Part shown: positions 1,678-18,447 of the stretch, in pieces | Layout: the number at the start of each line of letters is the position of its first letter | How positions within the stretch are numbered: the first letter of the stretch is position 1 | Assembly (NCBI GenBank): GCA_036400935.1 | Contig: DASWWW010000001.1 | Span: 118,375-182,374 of the forward strand | DNA: 64,000 bases | From: Minisyncoccota bacterium | Lineage (GTDB): Bacteria > Patescibacteriota > Minisyncoccia > Phycocordibacterales > UBA6065 | Direction of reading: 5' to 3' | Notes under the pieces: model-generated | Told to the model about the DNA's origin: nothing | The model's database searches: none | What the model saw: only the letters and a program-made list of their open reading frames with translations | Made by a program: the position numbers and the translations under genes

Positions 1678-4524
1678 ATGTCAAAGAAGATCGTAGTCGG
1701 CCTTGTAGCAGCATTGTTCATTTTCGGAGCTTCATTCGGTACGGTACGTGCGCAGGAGGCCCAGTCGGGCATCAGCTTCGCTCAGCTCATCGAGCTTCTC
1801 ATCGGCTCGGGCTTGATCGCGCCTGAGAGGGCAGCGAATGCCCGCGCCATGATCTCATCCCAGCCTTTGCCCGTAGGATACGTCGCGTCTCCTGCCTATG
1901 CCACGACGACTATCGGCACCTCGACCGTCGCTACTTCGACCGGCCCTATGGTCGACCTCAAGGTCAGCGGTCTCGACAGCGTAAGCGTAAACAACCGAAC
2001 TACCGTCCGGGTATCTTGGACATCGACCGGCACCCGATCGTGTAATGCAAGCGGATCCTTGCTTTCTATCGCGAACGGGGGACAGTGGGGCTACAACGGC
2101 CTCCTCGGAACTTCGGGCAGCGAGCTGCTCGTCGCGGCGACCTCGGGCTCGCTCCCTTCGACAGTGATCGTAGGCATCCAGTGTTTCACTAATACGGGAA
2201 GCTCCGTTAGCGACAGCGTGCCCGTGACAATTACCGCTTCTGGCAATCTTACGACCGGCACTACCTCGGTCGCGAGCAATCCTTTCGTCGTAACATATCC
2301 GACGAGCGCAAATACTCTTTACATCGGGCCGACTCACACCGTCGTCTTCCGCGGCGGCGACTCCGACGTCCGCAGCTATTCCGTGTATCTCGTCGGCGGC
2401 GCCCTTGGGTCTACCGGTTCACGGTACCTCGGCACCGCATATCCCCAGACGCCTGGAGGAGCTGGAACCTTTGCGATCGTCATTCCTTCGGACATTCAGC
2501 CGGGCAATGGTTATCAGATCCAATTCAGCGGCGCTCGAGCTTCGGGAGGAAACAGCGCCTCATTCGGAATCGTTCGTCCTCCTCAGAATACTATCGCCTC
2601 GAGCACGATCTGGGACATAAATAATCGCGCGGCATCCGGCGTTCAGATCGCTGACGGCACAATCTCAGCAAATATCGCGGGCGCATCTACCATTCAGGTA
2701 AATGCGGGAGACAGCATGACGACCCTCGCAAGGATAAATATCTCTGCGGCAGGATCGGACGTGAGCATCCAGAGAATCAAGATGAATCTCGGATCGGTTT
2801 CTCCTTACAACAAGGTATTCAAGACCATATACTTCACCGATTCGAACGGAACGGTTCTCGCACAGGCGGACATAAACGCGAACACTGTTCCATTAGACGG
2901 CGGAAGCTATACATTGAACCTCGGAGGCTTCAGCAAGAACGTCTCAAGGAATACGACCCATACTTTCAACATAAAGGCGGATATCTATTCTTCTATTCCG
3001 TCGGCCAATCAGGGATACCAGACCATCTCTGTCGGTGCGAGCGGCATTCGAGGAATGGACGCTTCGGGAATAGACCGATACGCTCCCGCATCAGGTATAA
3101 GCCAGACGCTCAACGTCATCGGCGCTCCGATCTCGCCGGTTAGCCTTGTGAACGGCATCACTTATTCGTCTGTTCCTTCATCGGTCGTAGCCGGCTCGAC
3201 ATTCAATGTCACGATCGCGAACTCGGGGACAAAGCAGTGGGGAGCATGGCACGATATCGCGATCTCGGCTAACGACCTCTCCTTCAATACCCAGATGGTC
3301 ACGCTCAGCAGCACTCCTGTCGGATCGTCTAAGACAGTTACCTTCACCGCGCCTACGACTCCGGGTACCTACAAGATCCGCGCGGTAGAGCAGGGCGTCG
3401 AGTGGTTCGGCGGAACTCGATCCTTTACAGTCACCTCGTCGAATACTCAGACTCAGTCTCGACCGATCTCAGGATCTCTCTCGGTCGCATCTACTTGCGT
3501 TGTTCCCGGAGCAAGCTTCAACGTGCAGGGATCGGTTGCGGGCGACGGAGTGAATTCCGTAGTCCTTGAAAAGGACAGCAACCAGGACGGCGTCTTTGGT
3601 ACGGCTGCTACATGGGGATCGACAGGGGGCTCTTTCAATTCTAACGAAGGCGGTTCATACAGCGGGCGCCTCGATTTCAGGCTCGTGGTGAACGGCACTG
3701 TCAGGGATTCAAAGAGTGTCACCGTCTCGACTGCCTGCGGACCGCAGACTCAGCAGTACAGCCAGTCGTGCGCCGGCACCCAGCCTTCAGGCGAGGGAGT
3801 GGTAAAGGGATACTCTTCATACACTTCAGGCTATGGCACCACCAATTGGACATTCGTCTCGGCTAACCCTCAGGCCTGCCAGTGGTCATGTGCGAGCGGA
3901 TACGGCGTGACGGGCAATACCTGCCAGCCGACTACCCAGACTTCGCAGCCTGCTCAGATCACCTATCAGGCATGTTCGGGAACTGAGCCTTCAGGATCAA
4001 ACGTAACAAAGGGCGGCGGCATGTACTCGACCGGCTACGGCACTACAAACTGGACCTACGTCTCTAGCAACCCTCAGGCCTGCCAGTTCACATGTTCGGG
4101 CGGCGCGACATGGAACGGAGCGGCTTGCGTACTGCCAACCCCTACGGTCTCTTTGACCGCGGATACGAGCTGCGCGGTTCCGGGCTCGACCATTACCGTC
4201 ACAAGCTACGTGACCGGTTCGCCAATCACATCTAACTATATAGAGAGGGATACCCCTGCGGAGAATTCCCAGTACGGAGATGGTATATTCGGCGGAAAGG
4301 CTGACTACGGTACTTCGGGAGGCTCTCACAGCTACTCTCAGACTACCGAAAGGGAGGGCTACTACGACTTCAAGGCCGTTGTGAACAACAGCATCACGTC
4401 ATCGGTTCGCGTCTACGCCTCGCAGTCTTGCGGACAGTCATCGGCGGCGCCGGCCATGACTAACCTCGGATCGGCTATTGTAGGCTTTGATTCTCTGGTA
4501 AGGCTCCTTGAATTATTAAAATAA
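1678..4524 (+). CDS. large secreted cell-surface protein (948 aa); Ser/Thr/Gly-rich with several internal Cys-bounded repeats
   Basis: It has a signal peptide and a conserved post-signal module (SFAQLIELLIGSGLIAPERAANARAMI) shared with the 6418 protein. It carries two roughly 90 aa repeats (CVVPGASFNV...LEKDSNQDGVFG...CGP and CAVPGSTITV...CGQ) that are homologous to repeats in 38231..39589, and two roughly 55 aa repeats (CAGTQPSGEG...YGTTNWTFVS.NPQACQW.C). Confidence 0.75.
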   Translation: MSKKIVVGLVAALFIFGASFGTVRAQEAQSGISFAQLIELLIGSGLIAPERAANARAMISSQPLPVGYVASPAYATTTIGTSTVATSTGPMVDLKVSGLDSVSVNNRTTVRVSWTSTGTRSCNASGSLLSIANGGQWGYNGLLGTSGSELLVAATSGSLPSTVIVGIQCFTNTGSSVSDSVPVTITASGNLTTGTTSVASNPFVVTYPTSANTLYIGPTHTVVFRGGDSDVRSYSVYLVGGALGSTGSRYLGTAYPQTPGGAGTFAIVIPSDIQPGNGYQIQFSGARASGGNSASFGIVRPPQNTIASSTIWDINNRAASGVQIADGTISANIAGASTIQVNAGDSMTTLARINISAAGSDVSIQRIKMNLGSVSPYNKVFKTIYFTDSNGTVLAQADINANTVPLDGGSYTLNLGGFSKNVSRNTTHTFNIKADIYSSIPSANQGYQTISVGASGIRGMDASGIDRYAPASGISQTLNVIGAPISPVSLVNGITYSSVPSSVVAGSTFNVTIANSGTKQWGAWHDIAISANDLSFNTQMVTLSSTPVGSSKTVTFTAPTTPGTYKIRAVEQGVEWFGGTRSFTVTSSNTQTQSRPISGSLSVASTCVVPGASFNVQGSVAGDGVNSVVLEKDSNQDGVFGTAATWGSTGGSFNSNEGGSYSGRLDFRLVVNGTVRDSKSVTVSTACGPQTQQYSQSCAGTQPSGEGVVKGYSSYTSGYGTTNWTFVSANPQACQWSCASGYGVTGNTCQPTTQTSQPAQITYQACSGTEPSGSNVTKGGGMYSTGYGTTNWTYVSSNPQACQFTCSGGATWNGAACVLPTPTVSLTADTSCAVPGSTITVTSYVTGSPITSNYIERDTPAENSQYGDGIFGGKADYGTSGGSHSYSQTTEREGYYDFKAVVNNSITSSVRVYASQSCGQSSAAPAMTNLGSAIVGFDSLVRLLELLK

Positions 4525-4539
4525 GGAGCGTATAGAGCA

Positions 4540-4576
4540 GGAAATGCCGCGGGCGCGTAGCGCCCGCGGCATTTCC
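4540..4576 (+). terminator. long perfect hairpin (GGAAATGCCGCGGGCGC / GCGCCCGCGGCATTTCC)
   Basis: A 17 bp inverted repeat lies immediately after the stop at 4524. The T-tract is weak, so it may act as a stabiliser or terminator. Confidence 0.5.
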
Positions 4577-4578
4577 GT

Positions 4579-4606
4579 TTGACTTTGGTTTCCGCTCTGC
4601 TATTAT
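4579..4606 (+). promoter_or_regulatory. sigma70-like promoter TTGACT-16-TATTAT upstream of tuf
   Basis: It is a consensus-like hexamer pair. A roughly 140 nt 5' UTR then leads to an AGGAGG RBS at about 4726. Confidence 0.5.
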
Positions 4607-4744
4607 ACGGTGTACGCATTTTGCGACCTTTTTCATTACCTTTGTAAGTTATTGAAAGAGTTTAAAAGCTTAGAACATTAATTTTTAAGCACCCTGGATT
4701 TGCAACCATCTCGCGCGCAGATCTAGGAGGCTTACCAAAACGTT

Positions 4745-5938
4745 ATGGCAGAATTTGCACGAACAAAGCCTCACGTAAACGTAGGAACCATCGGTCACGT
4801 CGACCACGGAAAGACTACGCTTACTACGGCTATTCTCGCGACTCAGGCTCGCGACGGTCTCGCAGTAGGTAAGGCATACGCCGACATTGCAAAGGGAGGT
4901 ACGGTCCGCGACGCATCTAAGGTCGTTACCATCTCTCTCGCGCACGTAGAGTACGAGTCAAACACTCGACACTACGCTCACATCGACGCCCCTGGTCACG
5001 CCGACTACATTAAGAACATGATTACCGGTGCCGCTCAGATGGACGGCGCTATCCTCGTGGTATCTGCGATTGACGGCCCAATGCCACAGACTCGAGAGCA
5101 TATCCTCCTCGCAAAGCAGGTTGGAGTGCCAAAGATCGTGGTTTTCCTCAACAAGTGCGACGCGGTAGAGGACAAGGATCTCATCGACCTCGTTGAGGGC
5201 GAAGTCCGAGACCTCCTCACCAAGTACGGCTACGACGGCGCAAACACTCCAGTTATCCGCGGATCGGCCCTCAAGGCCCTCGAAGCGGCTAACAACACCG
5301 ACGAGTGGGCAATGAAGGTCAAGGACCTCATGAACACTCTCGACTCTTACATCCCTATGCCAGAGCGAGCTACGGACAAGCCTTTCCTTATGCCTATCGA
5401 GGACATCTTCTCGATCGAAGGACGAGGAACCGTGGTTACGGGACGAATCGAGCGAGGACAGATCAAGGTCGGTGAGGAAGTCGAGATCATCGGTATCAAC
5501 CCGACATCAAAGACAACCATCACTGGTATCGAAATGTTCAACAAGCAGCTCCAGTCCGGTATGGCAGGAGACAACGCAGGACTCCTCCTCCGAGGTACTG
5601 CAAAGGACGCGGTTACTCGCGGACAGGTTCTCGCAAAGGCGGGATCTGTTACTCCTCACACAGAGTTCGAGGCTGAGGTTCTCATCCTCAAGAAGGAAGA
5701 GGGAGGCCGACATACCCCATTCTTCAACGGCTACAAGCCACAGTTCTACGTTCGAACTACGGACGTTACTGGTGAGGTAACCCTCGCCCCTGGAGTAGAG
5801 ATGGTTATGCCTGGAGATACCGTTACCTTCAAGGTAAAGCTCCACGCTCCTATCGCCCTTGAGGACAAGCAGCGCTTCGCTATCCGAGAAGGAGGCAAGA
5901 CTGTCGGAGCAGGCGTCGTAACCAAGATCATCGCGTAA
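4745..5938 (+). CDS. tuf: elongation factor Tu
   Basis: It has the [11 protein letters not shown]-loop, DCPGHADY and NKCD motifs over its full length, and an AGGAGG RBS. Confidence 0.97.
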
Positions 5939-5981
5939 AAGCTTGCTAAATCGGACAAAATAAGTAGACTGAACATTATAT

Positions 5982-6350
5982 ATGGCAGAAGCAACAACAA
6001 AGAAGAAAGTAGTGAAGGCAAAGGCAGCTCCAAAGGCTGATGCGTCTCCACGACTTCGCATCCGTGTCCGAGCGTACGAGAGCAAGATTCTCGACGCTTC
6101 GGTCAAGCAGATCATAGACACGGCTCTCCGCTATGATGTCCAGGTTCTCGGTCCGGTACCGCTCCCTACGGAGATCAAGAAATATACGGTGAACCGCTCG
6201 TCGTTCGTGTATAAAAATGCGCGAGAGCAGTTTGAGATGCGAGTGCACAAGCGCCTCATCGATATCTTGAATCCTAACGCAAAGATCATCGAAGCCCTTA
6301 CGAATATGTCATTGCCATCAGGCGTGAACATCGACGTAAAGATGATTTAA
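5982..6350 (+). CDS. rpsJ: 30S ribosomal protein S10 with a Lys/Ala-rich N-terminal extension
   Basis: The S10 core (RIRVRAYESKILD...) is present. Confidence 0.93.
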   Translation: MAEATTKKKVVKAKAAPKADASPRLRIRVRAYESKILDASVKQIIDTALRYDVQVLGPVPLPTEIKKYTVNRSSFVYKNAREQFEMRVHKRLIDILNPNAKIIEALTNMSLPSGVNIDVKMI

Positions 6351-6354
6351 GAAA

Positions 6355-6390
6355 AAGCAAAAGCCCGCCGCAAGGCGGGCTTTTGCTTTT
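6355..6390 (+). terminator. rho-independent terminator after rpsJ
   Basis: The hairpin GCAAAAGCCCGCC-GCAA-GGCGGGCTTTTGC is followed by a T-run. Confidence 0.7.
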
Positions 6391-6417
6391 GGCGGATACT
6401 CGGCGTATGCTTGCCTT

Positions 6418-8004
6418 ATGACTAAGAAAATCATCGTCTCGGCCCTTTTCGCAGCCGTACTCTTGGGCGGAGTCCAGAGAGCGGAAGCAATGTCTTTCTC
6501 GGAGCTTATTGAGTTTCTTATAAACGCCGGAATTATAGCGCAGAATAAGGCTGCCGAAGCTCGCGCGGCCATAGCCGTAGGCACGGGTCAGCAGTCGAAC
6601 TGCCATATGTTCAATTCGAACTTTGGGGTAGGGTCGGGCGGGCCGGACGTAGCCGCCTTGGGCAAGATCCTTGCCAAGGAGGGGCTGCGTAGCGTTGCTG
6701 GCAATTCCTATGATGAGGAAATGGCCGCTTCAGTCGTGAGCTTTCAGGCGCGCTACGGCATACCATCGACAGGATATGTTGGTCCGCTTACTAGGGCGCA
6801 TCTCAATCAGGTGTCGTGCTCGCCTGCGTCGAGCTCGAAATCTGCGCCAGCGGCCAGTTCGATCCCTGCTTCTGTTCCAGCAAAGCCGGCGGCCACTATC
6901 ATTTCCGCTCCGGTCGTGCTCGCGCCCGCGCCGGGCAGCGTTTGGGACGTAAACGGGAACTATACCGTCAAAATCCAGTTTCCATCGCAAGAATCGGGAA
7001 AAGTCGCGAAGCTTGGCCTAAGCATTTGCCCCGCAACATTTGGCAGCTGTTACATTTTGGAATCGTATGACTCGAGGCTGCCTCTCGGTCAGAATCCCAT
7101 AGCCGAAGTCCCATGGTCCTCGATCAGGGAAATGAATACGAGCATTGCTCCTGGAAAGTACAAGCTTGCCGTCGTCGTGAACGATTCCGATCACTACAAC
7201 AACATATCGGTTGATGGCGGGGAATTCACCGTGACCGGCAGCTTTACACGGCAGGCTTCGCAACAGCCGCAGCCTTCTGGTGACTCGAGCTCGATGGCAC
7301 AGGACTGGTCGGCAACGTCGTTTGTTGGATACTCTCTCGTGAGGGACCTTTCGATTGGTTCTTTGGGGCGCGACGTCGCAATCCTCCAGGATTTTCTTTG
7401 GACAAAATCTTTCTTGCAGATGAGTTCCGGCGTCGTGCACGGCTCTTTTGATCAGGCTACGGCCGATGCGCTTTCCAGGTACCAGGTTTCTGTTGGACTC
7501 TCAGCAAGCGGTTCCGTAGGATCTCTTACGAGGGCGTCTCTCAATACGGCTTTTACATCACAGGCCCCCAATTCTGTTGCCGTTCCCGCTTCAAATCCAG
7601 CAAGCAGTCCGATGCCGCAGGTGTCATGTCCTCAGTCCGTGAGTCTCCCGGGATTTACGCTCACCCTTGAGCCGTGTGAGATTGTTAATGCTTCCTTGAC
7701 CGACGAGCAAGGGGATTTGAAGTTCAAGGTAAGGATCACCGCGAGCGATCCGGGCGCTTCTTTTTCCTTCTATGCATCCTATGCCTCAACTGTCGGTTTT
7801 CCGCCCTATTCGGTTTTGATGGGATCGGGCGCCACTGTGGGCGGCGCAGAATTCGACCTGACTTTCGTTGAAGGTATGCTTTCGGCTAACGGATCTGAGC
7901 CGCGAACATATAGCGGCTATTTGCCAATAACCGTCCTCGATCCCAAGGAGAACAAAGCTTATCTTTATATGAGGCTCAACCTTACGGTAAATCCTGCGAA
8001 CTAG
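6418..8004 (+). CDS. secreted protein with two PG_binding_1 (peptidoglycan-binding) domains, inserted between rpsJ and rplC
   Basis: It has a signal peptide and a conserved N-terminal module (SFSELIEFLINAGIIAQNKAAEARAAI). It also has PG-binding-like segments (GPDVAALGKILAKEGL...GYVGPLTRAHL and GRDVAILQDFLW...VGSLTRASL). Confidence 0.75.
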   Translation: MTKKIIVSALFAAVLLGGVQRAEAMSFSELIEFLINAGIIAQNKAAEARAAIAVGTGQQSNCHMFNSNFGVGSGGPDVAALGKILAKEGLRSVAGNSYDEEMAASVVSFQARYGIPSTGYVGPLTRAHLNQVSCSPASSSKSAPAASSIPASVPAKPAATIISAPVVLAPAPGSVWDVNGNYTVKIQFPSQESGKVAKLGLSICPATFGSCYILESYDSRLPLGQNPIAEVPWSSIREMNTSIAPGKYKLAVVVNDSDHYNNISVDGGEFTVTGSFTRQASQQPQPSGDSSSMAQDWSATSFVGYSLVRDLSIGSLGRDVAILQDFLWTKSFLQMSSGVVHGSFDQATADALSRYQVSVGLSASGSVGSLTRASLNTAFTSQAPNSVAVPASNPASSPMPQVSCPQSVSLPGFTLTLEPCEIVNASLTDEQGDLKFKVRITASDPGASFSFYASYASTVGFPPYSVLMGSGATVGGAEFDLTFVEGMLSANGSEPRTYSGYLPITVLDPKENKAYLYMRLNLTVNPAN

Positions 8005-8010
8005 TTTGAG

Positions 8011-8040
8011 AAAGCCGCCCGCAAGAGCGGCTTTTTCTTT
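8011..8040 (+). terminator. rho-independent terminator
   Basis: The hairpin AAAGCCGCCCGCAAGAGCGGCTTTTT follows the stop. Confidence 0.7.
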
Positions 8041-8066
8041 GACAAATGCTGCTAGAAGAGTAGTCT
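8039..8066 (+). promoter_or_regulatory. promoter-like TTGACA-16-TAGTCT
   Basis: It lies upstream of the ATG at 8079. Confidence 0.35.
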
Positions 8067-8078
8067 ACATACCGGCAC

Positions 8079-8447
8079 ATGAAGCAAAAAATAGCGGTCA
8101 TTGACTACCAATTGGGTCGGCTCGAGCCTCTGCGCCAGCTGCTCGCAGGCGCTGGGTATGAGGTGCTCCCGATCCTTATCGAGGAGGGAACGTACTACGA
8201 ATCGATAAATAAGGTAAAGGTGTTCGGTCCGGATCTTATCCTGACGGTGCATGTCCTCGGTATCGACGGCGTGAACGGCAGCCACGTATCGCGTGCGCTC
8301 GACTTGCCCAAAACCAGGCTCGTGGGCACTGACGAAAGCAAGGTGGCACAGCCGTACTGCGCGGCACGGTTCGATATCAAGGGCGTGCACGCTTCGGACA
8401 GTTCCAAGCGCAAGTTCATAGCCTTCATCAAAGCGGCCCTCTCCTAA
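8079..8447 (+). CDS. small CheY-like pseudo-receiver domain protein that lacks the phospho-acceptor Asp
   Basis: It has a receiver-like beta-alpha pattern (KIAVIDYQ...GPDLILTVHVLGIDG...LVGTDES...K). The position aligned with CheY D57 is Val, and the acidic pair is DY instead of DD. A terminator hairpin at 8433..8464 overlaps the stop. Confidence 0.5.
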   Translation: MKQKIAVIDYQLGRLEPLRQLLAGAGYEVLPILIEEGTYYESINKVKVFGPDLILTVHVLGIDGVNGSHVSRALDLPKTRLVGTDESKVAQPYCAARFDIKGVHASDSSKRKFIAFIKAALS

Positions 8448-8473
8448 AGGGGCCGCTTTTTTCTTGCCGAATC

Positions 8474-8502
8474 TTGCATAATCCGCCCTTTTGAGGTAAT
8501 AT
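8474..8502 (+). promoter_or_regulatory. sigma70-like promoter TTGCAT-17-TAATAT followed by a roughly 90 nt leader upstream of rplC
   Basis: Hexamers and spacing are consensus-like. The leader may be an r-protein autoregulatory target. Confidence 0.5.
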
Positions 8503-8592
8503 CTTTGCCACTGAAGCAAGGGGCTTCTGGTCAGTTTTAATAGGTCAGTTAAGAGAGCCTACGGAGTCTCATACTCCGCGCTCGTCCAAACA

Positions 8593-9219
8593 ATGAAGAA
8601 ATTCATCCTCGGCACGAAAAAGGCTATGACTCAGGTCTTCGACGCTGACGGTATCGCATATCCTGCGACCGTCCTGTCGGCAGGTCCTGTCGTCGTAACC
8701 CAGGTTAAGACGGTAGAGAATGACGGTTATGCTGCTCTTCAGGTAGGTTTCGGCCTCCAGAAGGAACAGCGCCTTACAAAGGCGGTAAAGGGCCACGTAA
8801 AGCAGCTCGGATTCTTCCGACACATCGCGGAGTTCTGCGTTGATGCGGCAGAGGTTGCAAAGGCAAAGGTAGGCGACAAGATCGACCTCAGCACTTTCGC
8901 TGCGGGCGACCTCGTTACTGTCCGATCGCAGGCAAAAGGAAAGGGCTTCCAGGGTGCCGTCAAGCGACATCACTTCGGTGGAGGACGCCGATCTCACGGT
9001 CAGAAGCACTCTGAGCGAGAAGTTGGTTCTATCAACGGCGGAGGCCGCGTAGGATCTGGACGCGTCGCAAAGGGCAAGCGAATGCCAGGACGCATGGGAA
9101 ATGACATGGTCACTGTAAAGAATCTCAAGGTTCTCCAGGTTCGCCCTGAGTCGAACGAGATCGTTATCCACGGATCCCTTCCTGGTCGAAAGGGCGTACT
9201 CGTATCTATCGTTGCGTAA
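8593..9219 (+). CDS. rplC: 50S ribosomal protein L3
   Basis: L3 homology runs the full length. Confidence 0.93.
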   Translation: MKKFILGTKKAMTQVFDADGIAYPATVLSAGPVVVTQVKTVENDGYAALQVGFGLQKEQRLTKAVKGHVKQLGFFRHIAEFCVDAAEVAKAKVGDKIDLSTFAAGDLVTVRSQAKGKGFQGAVKRHHFGGGRRSHGQKHSEREVGSINGGGRVGSGRVAKGKRMPGRMGNDMVTVKNLKVLQVRPESNEIVIHGSLPGRKGVLVSIVA

Positions 9220-9237
9220 TATTTTTATATCAAACAT

Positions 9238-9948
9238 ATGAAAACTGAAACCAAGACAAAGAAGGCGGTTAAGGCAACGAAGACAAATCTCGAGGCGACC
9301 ATCTACGACAAGGCAGGCAAGTCAGTAGGCACAGCGACCCTCGCTGAGTCAGCTTTCGGCCTCTCATGGAACGCCGACCTCGTTCACCAGGTCATGCTCT
9401 CGATGAACTCGACAGCTCGACAGCCTATCGCTCACACCAAGACTCGCGGAGAAGTTCGCGGAGGAGGCAAGAAGCCATGGCGACAGAAGGGAACAGGCCG
9501 CGCTCGACACGGATCTACCCGATCTCCATTGTGGGTCGGAGGAGGCGTGGCGCACGGACCTCGAAACGACAAGAACTACGATCGAAAGATCAACAAGGGC
9601 ATGAAGGCCAAGGCTTTCCTCACGCTTCTCTCAAAGAAGTGGCGAGACGGCGAGATCCTCTTCGTGGACTCTCTCTCGTTCAAGGCTCCAAAGACAGCTG
9701 ACGCTATGTCTGCTCTCTCAACCCTTTCAAAGGTAAAGGGCTTCGAGAAGCTTTCTACGAAGCGAAAGAACTCTGCTTTCATCGCATTGGCGAAGAAGGA
9801 CGTCGCTACCGAGAAGAGCTTCCGAAACATCGGATCCGTCACTATCGACGAGACTCGAAACCTCAACCTTCTCGACCTCTTGAAGTACACCTTCATCGTT
9901 ATCGAGAATCCGGTCGAATCAGTCAAAGTAATCGAAGCTAAACTCTAA
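9238..9948 (+). CDS. rplD: 50S ribosomal protein L4
   Basis: L4 motifs (GGGKKPWRQKGTGRAR) are present. Confidence 0.93.
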   Translation: MKTETKTKKAVKATKTNLEATIYDKAGKSVGTATLAESAFGLSWNADLVHQVMLSMNSTARQPIAHTKTRGEVRGGGKKPWRQKGTGRARHGSTRSPLWVGGGVAHGPRNDKNYDRKINKGMKAKAFLTLLSKKWRDGEILFVDSLSFKAPKTADAMSALSTLSKVKGFEKLSTKRKNSAFIALAKKDVATEKSFRNIGSVTIDETRNLNLLDLLKYTFIVIENPVESVKVIEAKL

Positions 9949-9952
9949 TTTT

Positions 9953-10435
9953 ATGGCGCTATTTGGACAAAAAACAAAGGTAAACGACTCTTCGGCTGAG
10001 AAGGCTCAGTCAACGAAGGATAAGTCTTCAAAGAAAGCACTTATCAAGAAGACTCCAGTAAAGGCAGAGAAGCTTCCTAAGGCTGAGAAGGTGGCAGAGG
10101 CAAAGACCAAGGAGAAGAACAAGTCGGAGAAGCGCGCTGAGGCCGCTGCCGGCGTATCGTTCCCTAAGGGTTCTGCAGTCATCAAGCCCCGCGTAACCGA
10201 GAAGTCAGGACTCCTTTCACAGAAGGGAATCTACACGTTCGACGTTCGCGTAGACGCTAACACCCGCCAGATCGCGGCCGCTATCGTCGCGGCTTACAAG
10301 GTGACCCCTGTAAAGGTCTCTATCGCTCCTGTTCCTGCAAAGGCCATGTTCGTCCGCGGCAAGTCAGGCTCGACTTCTGCAGGCAAGAAGGCCTACGTCT
10401 ACCTCAAGAAGGGCGACACTATCGAATTCATCTAA
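9953..10435 (+). CDS. rplW: 50S ribosomal protein L23 with a long Lys-rich N-terminal extension
   Basis: The C-terminal L23 core is present at the expected operon position. Confidence 0.88.
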   Translation: MALFGQKTKVNDSSAEKAQSTKDKSSKKALIKKTPVKAEKLPKAEKVAEAKTKEKNKSEKRAEAAAGVSFPKGSAVIKPRVTEKSGLLSQKGIYTFDVRVDANTRQIAAAIVAAYKVTPVKVSIAPVPAKAMFVRGKSGSTSAGKKAYVYLKKGDTIEFI

Positions 10436-10453
10436 TTTATAACCATTACCAAC

Positions 10454-11308
10454 ATGAAAACATATCGACCAACAAGCCCGGGACGACGCCAGATGCAGAC
10501 GGTCAACTTCAAGGAGTACATCACCAAGAAGGACCCGTTGAAGGCCCTCACCCGAGGACGAAAACGAGACGTAGGACGAAACTCTGCGGGACGCGTGACC
10601 GTACGACACAAGGGAGGCGGACACAAGAGGCTCTATCGAGAGATCTCGTTCATGTTCGACAAGAAGGACATCCCGGCGACGATCCAGTCTGTCGAGTACG
10701 ATCCTAACCGATCAGGATTCATCGGCCTCGTCGCGTATCGCGACGGCGAGCGACGCTACGTTCTCCTTCCAAAGGCGGCAAAGGTAGGCGGAACCATCAT
10801 CGCTGGCGCAACTGCTCCTATCGAGCCAGGAAACGCCCTTCCTTTGAAGAAGATCCCAGTAGGTACATTCATCTACAACATCGAGCTCAAGCCTAACTCA
10901 GGCGCAAAGGCGGCTCGAGCGGCGGGTATCTTCGCTCAGGTCATCGGTAACGACGCAAGCTACACCATGATCAAGATGCCATCGACCGAGGTCCGAAAGG
11001 TCCACGAGGAGGCATACGCTATGATTGGCCAGGTATCGAACGACGAGCACTGGTTGGTAAACTCAGGCAAGGCAGGACGCTCACGATGGCTCGGCATTCG
11101 ACCGACCGTCCGAGGTACAGCCCAGAACCCTGTAGATCATCCATACGGAGGAGGTGAAGGACGACAGGGACGAGGCCTTCGACGACTCAAGACCCGCTGG
11201 GGTAAGCCAGCAGGAAAGGGCCAGAAGACTCGAACCCCAAAGAAGTACTCGAACGTCTTCATCGTTTCTCGCCGAAAGGTCGGAAAGGACCGAAACTCGA
11301 TCCAGTAA
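10454..11308 (+). CDS. rplB: 50S ribosomal protein L2
   Basis: L2 motifs are present throughout. Confidence 0.95.
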   Translation: MKTYRPTSPGRRQMQTVNFKEYITKKDPLKALTRGRKRDVGRNSAGRVTVRHKGGGHKRLYREISFMFDKKDIPATIQSVEYDPNRSGFIGLVAYRDGERRYVLLPKAAKVGGTIIAGATAPIEPGNALPLKKIPVGTFIYNIELKPNSGAKAARAAGIFAQVIGNDASYTMIKMPSTEVRKVHEEAYAMIGQVSNDEHWLVNSGKAGRSRWLGIRPTVRGTAQNPVDHPYGGGEGRQGRGLRRLKTRWGKPAGKGQKTRTPKKYSNVFIVSRRKVGKDRNSIQ

Positions 11309-11321
11309 ATCTAAATTTTCT

Positions 11322-11357
11322 AAAGCAAAGCGCCCGAAAGGGCGTTTTTGCTTTGCC
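11322..11357 (+). terminator. rho-independent terminator after rplB
   Basis: The hairpin AAAGCAAAGCGCCCGAAAGGGCGTTTTTGCTTTGCC follows the stop. Confidence 0.7.
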
Positions 11358-11381
11358 TGAAAGCGGTGCTAGACTGTTCGC

Positions 11382-11912
11382 ATGGAAAACAATACACATC
11401 AGAACGCATTTACTCAGGCTAATCCGGCTTCAGCCCCGGCGTCAGTCGCTCCAGCTTCTGGCAAAAGCTCTTTCTGGAAGGGCGTAGCGGTCGGTGCGGT
11501 AGGCATAGTCGTGCTCATGATCCTCGTCTCTATCCTTGCGGCAGGCTTTGCCTACTCGAGGGTCCAGCCCGCCCTCAACAATGCCCAGATCAAGGGCAAT
11601 CTTGCGGCGGTGCGTGCCAATCTCTCCAATCTGCGTGCCGAGGCCGAGGTGTATTATGACCGCAATAACGGCTCGTACGCGGGAGTCTGCAGGAGCGACA
11701 ATTTCGATGCTACCCTTAATAGCATCGTGTCGCCGATCGCTCTCAACGGTGACGTTATGTGCGCCGCTAACGCCCAGGAATACATTGCCGCGGCGACCGT
11801 TCAGGATGTCGACGGCATAAGGATGGTCTGCGTGGACAGCACGGGCGCAGCGACCTCTAATTTTGGAAGGGCGAAGGACCATTTCGCGGCGGAAAAAATG
11901 ACCTGCAACTAG
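11382..11912 (+). CDS. N-terminally anchored pilin-like protein (a type IV pilin-like helix with a C-terminal Cys pair but no prepilin cleavage motif), inserted between rplB and def
   Basis: A long TM helix is followed by a pilin-like segment (AAVRANLSNLRAEAEVYYDRNNGSYAG) and C-terminal cysteines (MCAAN...MVCVD...MTCN). There is no G/FTLIE class III signal. Confidence 0.5.
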   Translation: MENNTHQNAFTQANPASAPASVAPASGKSSFWKGVAVGAVGIVVLMILVSILAAGFAYSRVQPALNNAQIKGNLAAVRANLSNLRAEAEVYYDRNNGSYAGVCRSDNFDATLNSIVSPIALNGDVMCAANAQEYIAAATVQDVDGIRMVCVDSTGAATSNFGRAKDHFAAEKMTCN

Positions 11913-11913
11913 C

Positions 11914-12474
11914 ATGAGCAAGCAGAAGCCGACACTCTTGCGCATCGCCGAAATAGGAAACCCGGTCCTTCGCGCTATCGCGGCCCCTGTCGCCGATCCG
12001 AAGGCTCCCGAGATCCAGCACCTGATCGACAGCATGATAGCGACGTGCGCCGAGCAGGGAGGTGTCGGCATGGCCGCACCTCAGGTGCATGAGTCATCCC
12101 GCCTGATGATCATCGCCTCTACGCCCACTCCGGCGTATCCGGACGCGCCGAAGGTAAAGCCCTTTGCCGTCATAAACCCGGAGCTTATCGCTTCGTCGAA
12201 AGAGACAGAGCTCGGCTGGGAAGGGTGCATGAGCGTGCCCAATATCCGCGGGCAGGTGGATCGCAACGTGTGGGTGAAGGTTAGCTATACCGACCGTGCG
12301 GGCAAAAAGACCCAAAAGCGCTTTACTGGCCTCATCGCTCGCATATTCCAGCACGAGCTCGATCATTTGAACGGCCTCTTCTTCCTCGATCGGGCGAATC
12401 CAAAGACGCTCGTATCGAATGCGGAGTTCCAGAAGATTATGGCTAAGGGTAAGAAACCTAAGAATAAGAAATAA
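11914..12474 (+). CDS. def: peptide deformylase
   Basis: The GVGMAAPQ, EGCMS and QHELDHLNG (HExxH) motifs are present. Confidence 0.92.
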   Translation: MSKQKPTLLRIAEIGNPVLRAIAAPVADPKAPEIQHLIDSMIATCAEQGGVGMAAPQVHESSRLMIIASTPTPAYPDAPKVKPFAVINPELIASSKETELGWEGCMSVPNIRGQVDRNVWVKVSYTDRAGKKTQKRFTGLIARIFQHELDHLNGLFFLDRANPKTLVSNAEFQKIMAKGKKPKNKK

Positions 12475-12476
12475 TC

Positions 12477-12902
12477 ATGAAATTCCTCCTCAATACCTCG
12501 GAAAAGATAGGGAACTTCGGCTTTTGGCGCATCCTTACCAATTTCTGGACGGTAGTGTTCTATATCGCCATCACGTACGATTTCTTTTCTCATAACGCCC
12601 TCGATGAGAATCACATAATCCTCGCGGTCGCTGGAATATACTGTGCGTCGCTCGCCATCTACAGCGCCGAGAAGGAATTCCGCCGCTGGCATCACATGCA
12701 TCAGACTATGCACCCGGGTGAGATGTACGCCTTGCTCTGGACGCTTTTCATAATCGCGCTCATCACCGCCCAGGTCACGACAGGCGTCGAATATCACATG
12801 CCGCCGGAAGTCAGCGCCTCGTACATCGCCGTGATCTCGATCTTGGCCCTCACGCGCGAGTCTAAGAACATGTATAAGAGGAAAGGAGGGAAGAGGAATT
12901 AA
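12477..12902 (+). CDS. small integral membrane protein (hypothetical, about 4 TM)
   Basis: It has hydrophobic segments, and its start overlaps the def stop (ATAATCATG). Confidence 0.5.
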   Translation: MKFLLNTSEKIGNFGFWRILTNFWTVVFYIAITYDFFSHNALDENHIILAVAGIYCASLAIYSAEKEFRRWHHMHQTMHPGEMYALLWTLFIIALITAQVTTGVEYHMPPEVSASYIAVISILALTRESKNMYKRKGGKRN

Positions 12903-12907
12903 AGATA

Positions 12908-12934
12908 CCCGCCTCGGCATTTTGCCTTGGCGGG
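12908..12934 (+). terminator. rho-independent terminator
   Basis: The hairpin is CCCGCCTCGGCATTTTGCCTTGGCGGG. Confidence 0.55.
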
Positions 12935-12943
12935 TAGGGTAAT

Positions 12944-12972
12944 TTGACATTTCACGCCCCTTCCGCTAGTAT
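12944..12972 (+). promoter_or_regulatory. sigma70-like promoter TTGACA-17-TAGTAT for the rpsS-rplE block, followed by a palindrome-rich leader (12980..13096)
   Basis: It has the same hexamers and spacing as the rpsZ promoter at 17151. The leader holds the palindromes CTAGATCGAATCTAG and AACCTAGGTT. Confidence 0.55.
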
Positions 12973-13096
12973 GTCCAAACCAGTTCGAAATAGGGTATCT
13001 AGATCGAATCTAGGCTTATAAACCTAGGTTTTTCATTTCTAGAGCTGTCACACCATGACACCCTAGCCGCTCGAGCTTATAATTTATTGTCTCTAA

Positions 13097-13450
13097 ATGA
13101 CACGATCACTCTCAAAAGGCCCTTACGTAGACGAACGCGTTCTCGCAAAGATCGCAGGAAAGAAGCCACAGGAAACTGGGGTTATTAAGACTTGGTCACG
13201 AGCATGCCACATCTCTCCTGAGATGGTCGGCTTTAAGTTCGGCGTACATAACGGCAAAGACTTCATCGAGGTATTGGTGGCAGAGGACATGGTGGGCCAC
13301 CGACTCGGTGAATTTTCTTTGACCCGAAAGTTCTCGAAGCACGGAGGAAAGATGCAGAAGGAGCTCGAGATGAAGAAGAAGGAGAGCGAGGTCGCGGCAG
13401 CTCAGGCGGCAAAGGGCGCGGCTACTGATAAGAAGGCAGCAGCAAAATAA
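13097..13450 (+). CDS. rpsS: 30S ribosomal protein S19 with a Lys/Ala-rich C-terminal extension
   Basis: The S19 core (GPYVDERVL...HNGK) is present. Confidence 0.93.
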
Positions 13451-13459
13451 TCCAAATAT

Positions 13460-13822
13460 ATGGTTACCGCAACACTTTCAAACTATCGACAGGCTCCGCG
13501 CAAAGTGCGCCTCGTCGCGAATCTCATCAAGGGCAAGACCGTGCCTGCGGCTCTCAACATGCTTATGGTTACGACCAAGCGTGCTTCTGACCCATTGGTA
13601 AAGCTCCTCGAATCTGCAGTCGCCAACGCAAAGGACCGCGGCGTAGCAGTAGAGGGGCTTTTCGTTAAGGAGATCCGCGTAAACCAGGGTCTCGTCATGC
13701 GCCGCATGATGCCAGGAGCTCGCGGTACTGGATTCCCGATCCGAAAGAAGACCAGCCACGTCCACATTACCCTCGACACCAAGGCAGTAAAGGCACCAAA
13801 GGCTAAGAAGGCAACCAAATAA
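13460..13822 (+). CDS. rplV: 50S ribosomal protein L22
   Basis: L22 homology is present. Confidence 0.93.
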   Translation: MVTATLSNYRQAPRKVRLVANLIKGKTVPAALNMLMVTTKRASDPLVKLLESAVANAKDRGVAVEGLFVKEIRVNQGLVMRRMMPGARGTGFPIRKKTSHVHITLDTKAVKAPKAKKATK

Positions 13823-13826
13823 ATCT

Positions 13827-14507
13827 ATGTCACACACCGTACACCCATACGCTCATCGCCTCGGCATCATCAGGGACTGGAAGTCTCGATGGTTCGCTCC
13901 TCGCGGCAAGTACCAGGAATTCCTCAAGTCTGACGTCCTTTTGCGAGAGTACCTCTCGAAGAAGTTCCGCGGCATGTATGTCGCTGACGTGAACATCGAG
14001 CGAACGGAGAAGGCTATCCGCGTCATCATCGCTACATCCCGACCGGGCGTCATCATCGGCCGACAGGGAGAGGGCGCAATGAAGCTCAAGACCGACATTC
14101 TCGCTTTCATGCAGAAGAACGGCTCGAAGCTCCTCAAGAACCAGGAGCTCAAGATCGATATCGAGGAGATCCGCACTCCAGAGGCGAACGCAGCTATCGT
14201 GGCTTACATGATCGCTGAGGGCCTCGAGAAGCGCCTTCCGTTCCGCCGCGTCATGAAGCAGATGATCGAGAAGGTCATGGCTAACCGCGAGGTGAAGGGA
14301 ATCCGCATCTTTTTGGGCGGACGCCTCGGAGGCGCCGAGATGGCACGCGTAGAGGACATGAAGAAGGGCCAGATCCCTCTCCAGACTTTCCGCGCGAACA
14401 TCGACTACGCTCGAGAGAAGGCTCACATGACCTATGGAGACATCGGCATCAAGGTGTGGATCTATACCGGCGAAGTCTTCGATAAGAAGCCAGTAGCAAC
14501 CAAATAA
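13827..14507 (+). CDS. rpsC: 30S ribosomal protein S3
   Basis: The KH and S3-C domains are present. Confidence 0.93.
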   Translation: MSHTVHPYAHRLGIIRDWKSRWFAPRGKYQEFLKSDVLLREYLSKKFRGMYVADVNIERTEKAIRVIIATSRPGVIIGRQGEGAMKLKTDILAFMQKNGSKLLKNQELKIDIEEIRTPEANAAIVAYMIAEGLEKRLPFRRVMKQMIEKVMANREVKGIRIFLGGRLGGAEMARVEDMKKGQIPLQTFRANIDYAREKAHMTYGDIGIKVWIYTGEVFDKKPVATK

Positions 14508-14518
14508 TTTACACATAT

Positions 14519-14944
14519 ATGCTCGTCCCTAAAAAAGTAAAATACCGAAAGTGGCATGTGATGCGAAAGAATCCTTCGAAGGTAGGATTCGAGACTCGCG
14601 GCACGCTCCTCTCATTCGGATCATTCGGCCTCAAGGCAACGACAGCAGAGCGAATCCGCTCTGAGCAGATCGAGTCTGCCCGAAAGGTCATCTCTCGAGA
14701 GGTCGGCAAGAACGGCAAGATCTGGATCAGGATCTTCCCAGACATGCCTTACACCCAGAAGCCAGCCGAAGTAAAGCTCGGAAAGGGTAAGGGAGACCTC
14801 GCAGGATACTGCGCTCCGGTAAAGCCGGGCCGAGTACTGTTCGAAGTCGACGGCGTAGACGAGGCTGTCGCTCGAGAAGCTCTCCGAAAGGGCGCTACCA
14901 AGCTTCCTACGAAGTGCATCATCGTAACTCGCGAACTCCTCTAA
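14519..14944 (+). CDS. rplP: 50S ribosomal protein L16
   Basis: L16 homology (KYRKWHV...) is present. Confidence 0.93.
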   Translation: MLVPKKVKYRKWHVMRKNPSKVGFETRGTLLSFGSFGLKATTAERIRSEQIESARKVISREVGKNGKIWIRIFPDMPYTQKPAEVKLGKGKGDLAGYCAPVKPGRVLFEVDGVDEAVAREALRKGATKLPTKCIIVTRELL

Positions 14945-14955
14945 TCCACACATAT

Positions 14956-15252
14956 ATGTCTCTATTTACTAAGAAAACAAAAGAAAAGAAGGCGGTAGCG
15001 GCCAAGGCAGAGGTAAAGGTTACCGAGCCAAAGCAGCTCACGGGCATCGTCACATCTACCAAGATGAAGGACACCATCGTCGTCCGAGTGAACCGATTCG
15101 TAAAGCACGCAAAGTACGAGCGATTCGTGAAGATCTCGAAGAAGTACAAGGCTCACGACGCGGGCAACACCAAGAAGGAAGGCGAGACCGTTACCATCGT
15201 CGAGTGCGCTCCGATCTCAAAGGACAAGCACTTCAAGGTCCTTGCCGCATAA
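14956..15252 (+). CDS. rpsQ: 30S ribosomal protein S17 with an N-terminal extension; it follows rplP directly, with no rpmC in between
   Basis: The S17 core (GIVTSTKMKDTIVVRV...) is present. The ATG at 14956 is chosen over the ORF start at 14914, which overlaps rplP. Confidence 0.9.
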   Translation: MSLFTKKTKEKKAVAAKAEVKVTEPKQLTGIVTSTKMKDTIVVRVNRFVKHAKYERFVKISKKYKAHDAGNTKKEGETVTIVECAPISKDKHFKVLAA

Positions 15253-15273
15253 TAATTTTTAACAACAACTCCC

Positions 15274-15645
15274 ATGCTACAACCACGCTCAATAGTCCAG
15301 ATCGCCGACAACTCAGGCGCCAAAGTAGGCCGCATCTTCAAGGTGCTCGGATCTGCCGCAAAGCGCTATGCGTACATCGGAGACATCGTAGTGCTCTCGG
15401 TCCAGAAGGCGGAGCCTCGAAAGTCCGTTAAGAAGAAGGACGTCCTCCACGCGGTAGTCGTTCGCTCTCGAAACGCTACAAAGCGAGCTGACGGCTCATA
15501 CATCCGCTTCGACGAGAACGCGGTAGTTATCCTCGAAAAGACCAAGAAGGAGCCTCTCGCAGGACGCGTATTCGGTCCTATCCCACGCGAGCTCGCTGAA
15601 ATGGGCTTCCAGACTATCGCTTCTCGAGCTGCAGAAATCGTATAA
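15274..15645 (+). CDS. rplN: 50S ribosomal protein L14
   Basis: L14 homology (MLQPRS.V.IADNSGAK) is present. Confidence 0.95.
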   Translation: MLQPRSIVQIADNSGAKVGRIFKVLGSAAKRYAYIGDIVVLSVQKAEPRKSVKKKDVLHAVVVRSRNATKRADGSYIRFDENAVVILEKTKKEPLAGRVFGPIPRELAEMGFQTIASRAAEIV

Positions 15646-15662
15646 CCTTCATCACCAAATTT

Positions 15663-15881
15663 ATGCATATCAAAAAAGGAGATAAGGTAGTGGTACTCGC
15701 GGGAAAGGATAAGGGCGCGACAGGCGAAGTCCTCGCGGCTTTCCCAAAGGAGAACAAGGTCATCGTTTCAGGCGCTAACAAGTCCAAGCGACACCTCCGA
15801 CCTACGAAGCAGGGCGGAAAGGGCCAGGTGGTAGAGAAGGAGATGCCTCTTCACGCTTCGAACGTAGCTCTCAAGAAATAA
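15663..15881 (+). CDS. rplX: 50S ribosomal protein L24 (short form)
   Basis: The KOW motif (IKKGDKVVVLAGKDKG) is present. Confidence 0.9.
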   Translation: MHIKKGDKVVVLAGKDKGATGEVLAAFPKENKVIVSGANKSKRHLRPTKQGGKGQVVEKEMPLHASNVALKK

Positions 15882-15899
15882 TTCCCTTAACGCATTATT

Positions 15900-16448
15900 A
15901 TGAAAACTCTCAAAGAAAAGCAGGCAGACGCATACGAGGTGATGAAGAAGCAGTTCGGCTTCACCAACGCGATGCAGGCTCCAAAGATCCTCAAGGTTGT
16001 CGTCTCTGCGGGCGTCGGATCTTTCGGCGACAAGAAGAAGGTAGAACTCGCTGGCGACCGATTGATGAAGATCACCGGTCAGAAGGCTGTCCTTCGCGGC
16101 GCGAAGAAGTCTATCGCTTCGTACAAGAGCCGAGAAGGCGATCCTATGGGCTACCAGGTCACCCTCCGAGGCGCAAAGATGTGGCACTTCCTCGAGAAGC
16201 TCGTCAACATCGCTCTCCCTCGAACAAAGGACTTCCGCGGACTCCCATCTACATCGGCTGATGGAATGGGCGGATACTCTATCGGAATCAAGGAGACCTC
16301 TATTTTCCCTGAGTGCTCTGAAGAAGAGTTGAAGGACGTATTCGGCCTCGGCATTACTGTCGTAACGAACGTAAAGCCGAAGGATCAGACAAAGAAGTTC
16401 CTCGAGCTCCTCAATTTCCCGATCAAGAAGGTAGAAGCATCAAAATAA
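15900..16448 (+). CDS. rplE: 50S ribosomal protein L5
   Basis: L5 homology is present. Confidence 0.93.
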   Translation: MKTLKEKQADAYEVMKKQFGFTNAMQAPKILKVVVSAGVGSFGDKKKVELAGDRLMKITGQKAVLRGAKKSIASYKSREGDPMGYQVTLRGAKMWHFLEKLVNIALPRTKDFRGLPSTSADGMGGYSIGIKETSIFPECSEEELKDVFGLGITVVTNVKPKDQTKKFLELLNFPIKKVEASK

Positions 16449-16463
16449 ATCTCAAAAAGTAGA

Positions 16464-16492
16464 AAAAGCCACCTCGAACAGGTGGTTTTTTC
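16464..16492 (+). terminator. rho-independent terminator after rplE
   Basis: The hairpin is AAAAAGCCACCTCGAACAGGTGGTTTTTT. Confidence 0.75.
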
Positions 16493-16499
16493 TTGCCTA

Positions 16500-16527
16500 T
16501 TGACTATTTTATGATATGTGCTATAGT
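16500..16527 (+). promoter_or_regulatory. promoter TTGACT-16-TATAGT firing into the non-coding island
   Basis: A consensus-like hexamer pair sits immediately after the terminator, and no credible ORF lies downstream. Confidence 0.45.
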
Positions 16528-16534
16528 GCACAGG

Positions 16535-17145: not shown

Positions 17146-17150
17146 GGGGT

Positions 17151-17179
17151 TTGACACCTCGCAATTCATTTGCTAGTAT
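17151..17179 (+). promoter_or_regulatory. sigma70-like promoter TTGACA-17-TAGTAT for rpsZ-rpsH-...-secY
   Basis: It is identical in architecture to the promoter at 12944. Confidence 0.55.
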
Positions 17180-17227
17180 GCCCAGACAAGCTTTTTTCAA
17201 GGCTTTTTTATTTACATCAGGGAAAAA

Positions 17228-17413: not shown

Positions 17414-17487
17414 ACATTATTATTTAGGCAGTAGGGCGCGGGTGAATGCATAAAACCACCACAGCCGCGAACTAGACGCTAAACAAC

Positions 17488-17877: not shown

Positions 17878-17901
17878 TATTTCATATTTAACAAAACTTC
17901 T

Positions 17902-18429: not shown

Positions 18430-18447
18430 TCTGATTAAACTATATTT

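Follow-up and report, generated by a model that had tools for sequence, protein, structure and literature searches.

A likely lineage-derived break between rpsJ and rplC in a Paceibacteria ribosomal-protein supercluster, with a candidate leader RNA upstream of rplC

The ribosomal-protein supercluster is usually the most syntenic region of a bacterial genome, and its gene order serves as a near-universal marker, for example in the binning and phylogenomics of uncultured bacteria. This order is interrupted in a metagenome-assembled genome of a Candidatus Paceibacterota bacterium (Candidate Phyla Radiation, CPR; Patescibacteria), from which a stretch of 64,000 nucleotides (nt), hereafter the window, was analyzed. 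In the window, rpsJ, the gene for S10, ends at position 6350, and rplC, the gene for L3, starts at 8593. Open reading frame (ORF) calls and Pfam matches show that the intervening 2,242 nt hold two genes, ORF528 and ORF122, and three strong terminators, each formed by a hairpin and a U run. A preliminary description of this DNA had reported both the 2.2 kb separation and the independently terminated genes within it, and both observations hold. The explanation we judge likely is a lineage-derived break of the supercluster at the rpsJ-rplC junction, in which rplC has its own promoter and a structured leader, and the spacer is variable. The arrangement is typical of its lineage. What is modestly novel is a gene-turnover hot spot inside the supercluster, together with a previously undescribed candidate rplC leader in CPR.

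The events proposed are as follows. A fused rpsJ-rplC pair would have been uncoupled in the ancestor of a small Paceibacteria clade, leaving tuf-rpsJ as a bicistronic unit closed by a strong intrinsic terminator. The rplC-rplD-rplW-rplB unit would have come under a sigma-70-type promoter of its own and gained a structured leader (~85 nt). The spacer, carrying no essential signal, would then have become a hot spot at which small self-contained genes, individually terminated, are gained and lost, and the cargo in the window would be a peptidoglycan-binding protein that is secreted, together with a single-domain receiver that has degenerated. From the signals present in the DNA, we infer that tuf-rpsJ, the cargo genes, and rplC-rplB are transcribed separately and that the leader is a cis-regulatory RNA.

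Related genomes were compared using 80 species-representative loci fetched via the S10 protein, all from Paceibacteria-type CPR genomes, with genes mapped by tblastn; literature searches for S10-operon organization in Patescibacteria or Parcubacteria gave nothing relevant. The rpsJ-rplC gap is measurable in 76 species and has a median of 44 nt (41 species with 50 nt or less, 19 with 51-150 nt, nine with 151-500 nt, and seven with more than 500 nt), and it exceeds 2.7 kb in one more locus. If gaps of up to 150 nt are called fused and longer ones split, 60 of the 76 species are fused and 16 are split. A simple finder of canonical terminators scores one directly after rpsJ in 11 of the 16 split species and in none of the 60 fused species. 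Because post-rpsJ terminators are seen in split genomes and never in fused ones, these are two discrete states. Furthermore, a rough neighbor-joining tree built on five concatenated proteins (EF-Tu, S10, L3, L4, and L2) nests the window's clade, which is split throughout, among fused-state genomes and places the split state in at least seven separate clades, and the split is therefore derived and recurrent. The synteny comparison called for by the preliminary description thus confirms the split for the whole clade, but the layout is not singular and gap contents differ among its members. It is real yet not exceptional, being found in about a fifth of related species.

A similar separation is familiar from other lineages. 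In Cyanobacteria, plastids, and Archaea, tuf and rps10 are linked and the L3 operon is separate. The window resembles this layout in that tuf and rpsJ are adjacent (43 nt apart; across 79 relatives the median is 30 nt) and terminated before rplC, which has its own promoter-like element; S10 would thus be transcribed with EF-Tu and not with L3. Unlike the cyanobacterial and archaeal layout, the two units are adjacent and co-oriented at a distance of 2.2 kb, and the state is derived in a class that is mostly fused.

The preliminary description had taken control by L4 through the S10 leader as the bacterial baseline and had concluded that S10-operon regulation was rewired here. Neither idea survives. 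Control of this kind is documented only for Gammaproteobacteria (PMC3616713), so there is no ancestral L4/S10-leader circuit to have been rewired. No Rfam match to it occurs here, and the split itself recurs in 16 of 76 species.

The promoter and leader that had been proposed for rplC fared better, and the advice to look into this leader proved fruitful. A promoter-like element is kept as TTGCRN-17 nt-TAnnAT in six related genomes, at a fixed distance from the leader and despite wholly different DNA farther upstream. It is this conservation in relatives, not the consensus match, that makes the element credible. The leader occupies the interval from the conserved -10 element to the ATG of rplC (8503-8592; ~85 nt) and was aligned from six distinct sequences: those of the window, L082, L001 (identical to L083), L002, L003, and L084. 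Two of these, L082 and L084, were the extra usable leaders obtained from a metagenome scan with L3, whose hits came mainly from distant Firmicutes. In all 15 pairs, leader identity (60-88%) is higher than identity at four-fold degenerate rplC sites (25-60%), which argues that the leader is under selection as a nucleotide sequence.

Two hairpins, P1 and P2, are predicted in the leader (Table 1). P1 is GAAGC/GCUUC in the window and AAGCAG/CUGCUU in L084, and this one register-shifted sequence provides most of its structural support. A run of five or six U residues follows P1 directly in five of the six genomes, in the manner of an attenuator, and the scanner called P1 with its U run terminator-like in L082 and L002. 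An A/U-rich linker joins this element to P2, which lies 7-20 nt from the ATG across the six sequences. The outer helix of P2 (GAGAGC/GCGCUC) is invariant and hence uninformative for covariation. Its inner 6-bp helix shows compensatory changes at four of six pairs among six sequences in an alignment fitted to the model, and a 14-nt insertion in L003 lengthens the P2 helix with pairing kept.

The sequence has no recognizable counterpart among described RNA families. A scan of the whole window at Rfam 15 gathering thresholds returned only a transfer-messenger RNA (tmRNA) and two tRNAs, a permissive scan (E ≤ 10) of 4500-8700 gave no hit within 8450-8600, and no Rfam family was matched upstream of tuf, rpsJ, or rplC. 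A covariance model of the leader (R1) found no further copy in 91 sources totaling 1.3 Mb of related sequence, and this type-1 leader is therefore restricted to the clade. A 16-nt stretch in the ORF528 coding sequence (7513-7528) is 94% complementary to the 5' strand of P2 (8550-8565), which probably reflects chance given the many similar pairs in the region.

On these grounds the rplC leader is a candidate new ribosomal-protein leader, whose ligand would be one of the proteins encoded by its operon. A stabilized P2, 7 nt from the ATG, would hinder translation initiation because an mRNA without a Shine-Dalgarno sequence should need an unstructured start region, and P1 with its U run would attenuate transcription. 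Among 24 gene starts inspected (1678-19949), Shine-Dalgarno sequences are almost wholly missing and upstream regions are A/U-rich; AGGAGG is found only before tuf, at an unusually long distance from the start codon (~14 nt).

Precedent makes L4 the most likely predicted ligand, with L3, L23, and L2 also possible, since L4 is associated both with the Escherichia coli S10 leader and with a leader upstream of rplC in Archaeoglobi. In the E. coli S10 leader, L4 acts in both attenuation and translational repression (PMC3616713, PMC10931766). The window's element is likewise a structured 5' leader of an L4-encoding operon, with a hairpin and U run (in five of six clade members) and a hairpin at the start codon. 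Unlike the E. coli leader, it is placed before rplC and not rpsJ, has two hairpins in ~85 nt compared with five in ~170 nt, shows no sequence or covariance-model similarity, and belongs to CPR and not Gammaproteobacteria, with the ligand assigned by precedent. The candidate L4 leader of Archaeoglobi lies upstream of rplC-rplD-rplW-rplB (Eckert & Weinberg 2020, PMC7247131) and, like that of the window, is known from comparison only and heads an L3-L4-L23-L2 operon that lacks a leading S10 gene; it differs in domain of life and in structure, and no Rfam family matched the window's leader even at E ≤ 10.

Other split clades appear to have leaders of their own. A second family lies upstream of rplC in the clade of L015, L017, L032, L052, and L053, where gaps measure 222-689 nt. 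These type-2 leaders consist of TTGAnn-17-TAGTAT, a small hairpin with a U run, and then a long three-helix hairpin with six covarying pairs among four sequences and conserved internal loops CUAGCGAA and CGCAAA; their sequence is unrelated to type 1. A third block (CCAATGGGCNCAAACCGCG...; ACCAATGGGCNCAAACCGCG) precedes rplC in L026, L071, and L080. Neither the type-2 nor the type-3 leaders matched Rfam. The motif CGCAAACCG is present in both.

A broader reading, which we put forward tentatively and with more doubt than conviction, is that each lineage uncoupling rplC from rpsJ evolved a new autoregulatory leader of the same design, recognized by an operon-encoded protein such as L4. There would then be at least two, possibly three, unrelated leader families that share a promoter, a short attenuator hairpin with a U run, and a long operator hairpin at the start codon. 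If true, CPR would gain its first described ribosomal-protein leaders and a natural case of convergent evolution of ribosomal-protein feedback, and the freed junction would be a cassette-like site where surface-protein and accessory genes turn over beside the genes that the cell expresses most strongly. We know of no ribosomal-protein feedback regulator in CPR, and the conserved rplC leaders are concrete candidates for such control.

Several observations weigh against a derived break with a regulatory leader and must be accounted for. Separate transcription is predicted from sequence signals. The rplC promoter matches the consensus at 7 of 12 positions, which is under the scanner threshold and, taken alone, no better than chance. 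Unlike in the relatives, the U run after P1 is interrupted in the window (CUGGUCAGUUUU), and for this reason the terminator scan did not flag it there. The leader alignment was fitted to the structure model and covers a single clade. The P2 covariation score is 0.32, compared with 0.17 in shuffles (none of 500 equals it) and at most 0.13 for slid registers, but common descent by itself can lift a score above the shuffles, and only six sequences from one clade contribute. Folding of the leader, which the preliminary description had suggested, gives an energy no better than that of shuffled sequence (z -1.0 for the window), and the z-scores of leaders folded singly, -0.65 to -2.0, are not significant. 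Also, local alignment of the leader to E. coli 23S rRNA, a weak test, produces scores no better than those of shuffles; the organism's own 23S rRNA gene lies outside the window.

Much of this would be expected if the conserved block before rplC were a promoter and an ordinary 5' untranslated region kept by recent ancestry, and not a protein-binding regulatory RNA. The restriction to six sequences of one clade, the weak folding z-scores, the lack of a match to Rfam or to 23S rRNA, and the invariance of the outer P2 helix all fit this alternative, which we regard as unlikely but worth serious consideration. It accounts poorly for the comparison with L084, to which the leader is 60-72% identical even though adjacent synonymous sites in rplC are only 25-38% identical, near saturation. 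It also does not predict that pairing in the inner P2 helix would be kept through changes at four of six pairs and extended by the L003 insertion, or that an independent split clade would have a leader of the same architecture.

A second alternative would deny any regulatory uncoupling. The supercluster could still be one long operon in which the hairpins are leaky or serve RNA stability, and transcription from the tuf promoter reads through ORF528 and ORF122 into rplC, the inserted genes being carried along with ribosomal-protein transcription. In its favor, the entire run of genes from tuf to rplB is co-oriented and closely spaced, the candidate promoters of ORF528, ORF122, and rplC are weak by consensus, and most S10-spc-alpha genes are co-transcribed in Bacillus subtilis (cited in PMC3616713). 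Against this stand three consecutive canonical terminators in the gap. The first bears out the preliminary claim of a strong terminator after rpsJ, having a perfect 17-bp stem, a GCAA loop, and A-tract and U-tract arms; the second is the terminator previously assigned to ORF528. A consensus terminator scan flagged only the ORF122 hairpin of the three, because paired A and U tracts extend the stems of the rpsJ and ORF528 hairpins. Furthermore, the post-rpsJ terminator is limited to genomes with enlarged gaps, L003 carries an inserted gene on the opposite strand, and the promoter-like element keeps its spacing in six genomes. A single operon is thus improbable.

The spacer of the proposed break differs from genome to genome. 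In the window it holds ORF528 and ORF122. In L082, the closest relative, whose EF-Tu is 97% identical to that of the window, it holds two unrelated genes for proteins of 133 amino acids (aa). The gap of L001 is 294 nt without a gene. L002 has genes for a putative lipoprotein (212 aa) and a secreted protein (329 aa) there, and L003 has one for a multi-pass membrane protein, encoded on the opposite strand, and one for a protein of 189 aa. Cargo differs again in other split clades: L071, for example, has a surface protein of 1,097 aa, and L042 a protein of 581 aa. Two features keep their positions throughout the clade, namely the post-rpsJ terminator and a block of ~120 nt ahead of rplC. Because five clade genomes hold five different gap contents between conserved flanks, the gap, judged from these sequences, is a hot spot of gene turnover with a conserved transcription unit on either side. 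The earlier statement that surface-protein genes are embedded in the supercluster consequently stands for this genome but not for its closest relatives, which carry unrelated genes or none.

In L082, each 133-aa gene is followed by the same palindrome, GGCGCGCCGTACCCGGCGCGCC, and a T run (3324-3349 and 3817-3840), which suggests that a terminator module was duplicated or that the genes were assembled in the manner of cassettes. An integron-like cassette was considered for L082 and dropped, as there is no integrase and the palindromes are plain GC-rich terminators without an attC-like core.

Bacterial pangenomes are known for variable islets that occupy conserved hot spots in the intergenic space separating core operons. 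The gap resembles these in its conserved flanks, in the unrelated cargo of each close relative, and in the terminator belonging to each cargo gene; it differs in lying inside the ribosomal-protein supercluster and in having no associated mobility genes. It could also be argued that the 2.2 kb arrived recently by horizontal transfer, as a mobile element or genomic islet inserted into an intact operon, as both cargo genes are species-specific and cargo differs among close relatives. However, no integrase, transposase, or recombinase is found among the called genes and Pfam matches at the locus, no direct or inverted repeats beyond chance flank the gap, the nearest tRNA is 40 kb away, and the GC content of the gap (0.51-0.58) matches its surroundings and is uniform across the junctions. 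The split, with its terminator and its promoter and leader, also predates the cargo, given that L001 is split without any. We therefore give a mobile element little credence.

An assembly or binning chimera joining unrelated contigs between rpsJ and rplC, conceivable for a metagenome-assembled genome and named beforehand as a possible artifact, can be dismissed because the same arrangement occurs on seven contigs from independent assemblies that encode the exact ORF122 protein (one displayed with the same neighbors, from the 948-aa gene through rpsS, and six grouped as having mostly the same neighbors), there is no break in composition, and split junctions with conserved flanks arise independently in related species.

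The cargo proteins themselves largely match what had been proposed for them. ORF528 had been described as a signal-peptide protein that binds peptidoglycan, and PG_binding_1 (PF01471) matches it in two stretches, the first at aa 75-129, with 60.9 bits compared with a cutoff of 23. Its N-terminus, MTKKIIVSALFAAVLLGGVQRAEA, can be read as a Sec-type signal peptide with a hydrophobic core and an AEA cleavage motif, a judgment made by eye from the sequence without a predictor. In protein searches ORF528 has no full-length relatives, and the PG-binding domain alone is common to other proteins. Its first 60 aa, comprising the signal peptide and SFxxLIExLIxxGxIAxxxAAxARA, are shared with the 948-aa protein encoded upstream of tuf (E 3e-9), and the module recurs in a 422-aa protein at the rplB-rpsS junction of L001. 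It is thus present in three otherwise different surface proteins that flank ribosomal-protein modules (1678-1860 and 6418-6580 in the window; 13319-13500 in L001). The motif common to all three is a signal peptide followed by SFxxLIExLIxxGxIxPxKAxxARAxV, has no Pfam match, and may be a lineage-specific sorting or anchoring segment.

ORF122 (NCBI locus VGE35_00710) gave no Pfam hit even at E ≤ 1. A word-index search found only the protein itself, and a full HMMER search found 15 remote homologs, nine of which match Response_reg. Its AlphaFold model has a predicted local distance difference test score of 93.7 when built with the 15-sequence alignment and 41 from the single sequence. In a Foldseek comparison with the PDB, the receivers of PhoP, DivK, VicR, and MtrA rank on top (template-modeling score 0.67-0.72, probability 1.00), and the predicted model has the CheY-like (βα)5 fold of PF00072. 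The near-invariant Asp of the family is replaced by Val57 (LTVH compared with the LLDH consensus), and the second acidic residue is changed to give DY instead of DD. Because the predicted receiver fold lacks both the phospho-acceptor Asp and the acidic pair, the label of pseudo-receiver, or degenerate single-domain receiver, is justified for the modeled protein. Its family is small and unnamed and comprises stand-alone receiver-like proteins of ~120 aa (P0002-P0016) with the motifs KIAIIDD, PDxxLLDHxLG, IGTS, and YC. Pfam recognizes Response_reg in only about half of these proteins, and in five it also registers cREC_REC. Protein searches revealed no full-length relatives of ORF528 or ORF122 beyond their own genome.

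Table 1. Positions of genes, hairpins, and promoter-like elements at the rpsJ-rplC locus of the window, and of type-2 leaders in other loci
Feature	Position	Strand	Basis
Surface protein gene, 948 aa	1678-4524	+	ORF call
Hairpin closing the 948-aa surface-protein gene	4540-4576	+	-43 kcal/mol, z -7.9
tuf promoter-like element, TTGACT-16-TATTAT, TG-extended	4579-4606	+	10/12 consensus matches
tuf (EF-Tu), first gene of proposed tuf-rpsJ unit	4745-5938	+	GTP_EFTU, E 1.7e-55
rpsJ (S10), 43 nt past tuf	5982-6350	+	Ribosomal_S10, E 2.5e-30
Terminator hairpin ending proposed tuf-rpsJ unit	6353-6390	+	-31.5 kcal/mol, z -5.3
ORF528, predicted secreted, two PG_binding_1 domains	6418-8004	+	Pfam, E 1.4e-16
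Terminator hairpin after ORF528	8008-8037	+	-19.1 kcal/mol, z -3.8
ORF122, predicted stand-alone CheY-like pseudo-receiver	8079-8447	+	Remote homologs, predicted fold
Terminator hairpin after ORF122, overlapping stop codon	8430-8459	+	-20.1 kcal/mol, z -3.0
rplC promoter-like element, TTGCAT, 17-nt spacer, TAATAT	8474-8479, 8497-8502	+	Conserved in relatives
Candidate leader hairpin P1, GAAGC/GCUUC	8513-8527	+	Alignment of six genomes
Candidate leader hairpin P2, ending 7 nt before rplC ATG	8553-8585	+	Covariation
rplC	8593-9219	+	Ribosomal_L3
Proposed rplC-rplD-rplW-rplB unit	8593-11308	+	Closing terminator hairpin ~11322-11350
ORF176, def, ORF141	11382-12902	+	ORF calls
rpsS, rplV, rpsC, rplP and onward	From 13097	+	ORF calls, Pfam
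Type-2 leaders in other loci	L015 10763-10856; L017 7044-7141; L032 1654-1748; L052 4282-4378; L053 10651-10749		

The rpsJ-rplC junction is one of a few at which the cluster opens. The rplB-rpsS gap has a median of 834 nt in 49 measurable species and exceeds 500 nt in 32 of them, with another 14 loci lacking rpsS in the remaining 0.7-7.6 kb, and the rplE-rpsN gap, which is often enlarged too, measures between 31 nt and 3.6 kb among 25 species (loci L007-L075). The Paceibacteria supercluster thus seems modular, breaking at a few defined module boundaries (rpsJ-rplC, rplB-rpsS, and rplE-rpsN) where variable accessory genes gather. The region before tuf also departs from the usual order: rpsL-rpsG-fusA is not found there, and a 355-aa ORF without a Pfam hit and the 948-aa surface-protein gene occupy its place. 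This means that the str operon, too, is dispersed; a scan of 10 large window ORFs (≥399 aa) revealed no EF-G.

In the window, the second break, from rplB to rpsS (11309-13096), contains a terminator followed by ORF176, def, and ORF141. ORF176 is membrane-anchored through a helix resembling type IV pilins, def encodes peptide deformylase, and ORF141 encodes a conserved protein with four transmembrane segments that is also present in L001, L002, and L082. In the regions 6381-6420 and 11340-11384, the terminator U-tails after rpsJ and rplB, respectively, are both TTTTGCTTT, and in each case TAnnnT follows 16-17 nt later, with the ATG of ORF528 or ORF176 another 6 nt on. The -35 elements of these two genes may overlap the upstream terminator tail, which would give leaderless or near-leaderless transcripts. 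At ORF122 and rpsS, just 11-13 nt separate a -10-like hexamer from the start codon. Between ORF141 and rpsS (12903-13096) there are two promoter-like sites, TTGACA-17-TAGTAT (12944-12972) and ATGACA-17-TATAAT (13055-13083), with a hairpin and U run between them (13006-13031); this region could give rise to a very short transcript or serve the rpsS operon as an attenuated leader.

The third break lies in the spc cluster, where ~780 nt between rplE and rpsN, the gene for S14, contain no convincing ORF (16449-17227). A terminator after rplE (16466-16492) and a promoter-like TTGACT-17-TATAGT (16500-16528) are followed by ~600 nt that are highly structured (minimum free energy -253.9 kcal/mol, z -5.8) and had no Rfam match. 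This stretch ends in a 24-bp inverted repeat (17027-17050 and 17123-17146), after which TTGACA-17-TAGTAT precedes rpsN. It could be an unknown large noncoding RNA or a decayed gene; the corresponding site in the close relative L001 measures only 109 nt. Elsewhere in the window, tmRNA is encoded on the minus strand (45855-46248), and tRNA-Ile with the anticodon UAU, which is uncommon in bacteria, is located at 49245-49319.

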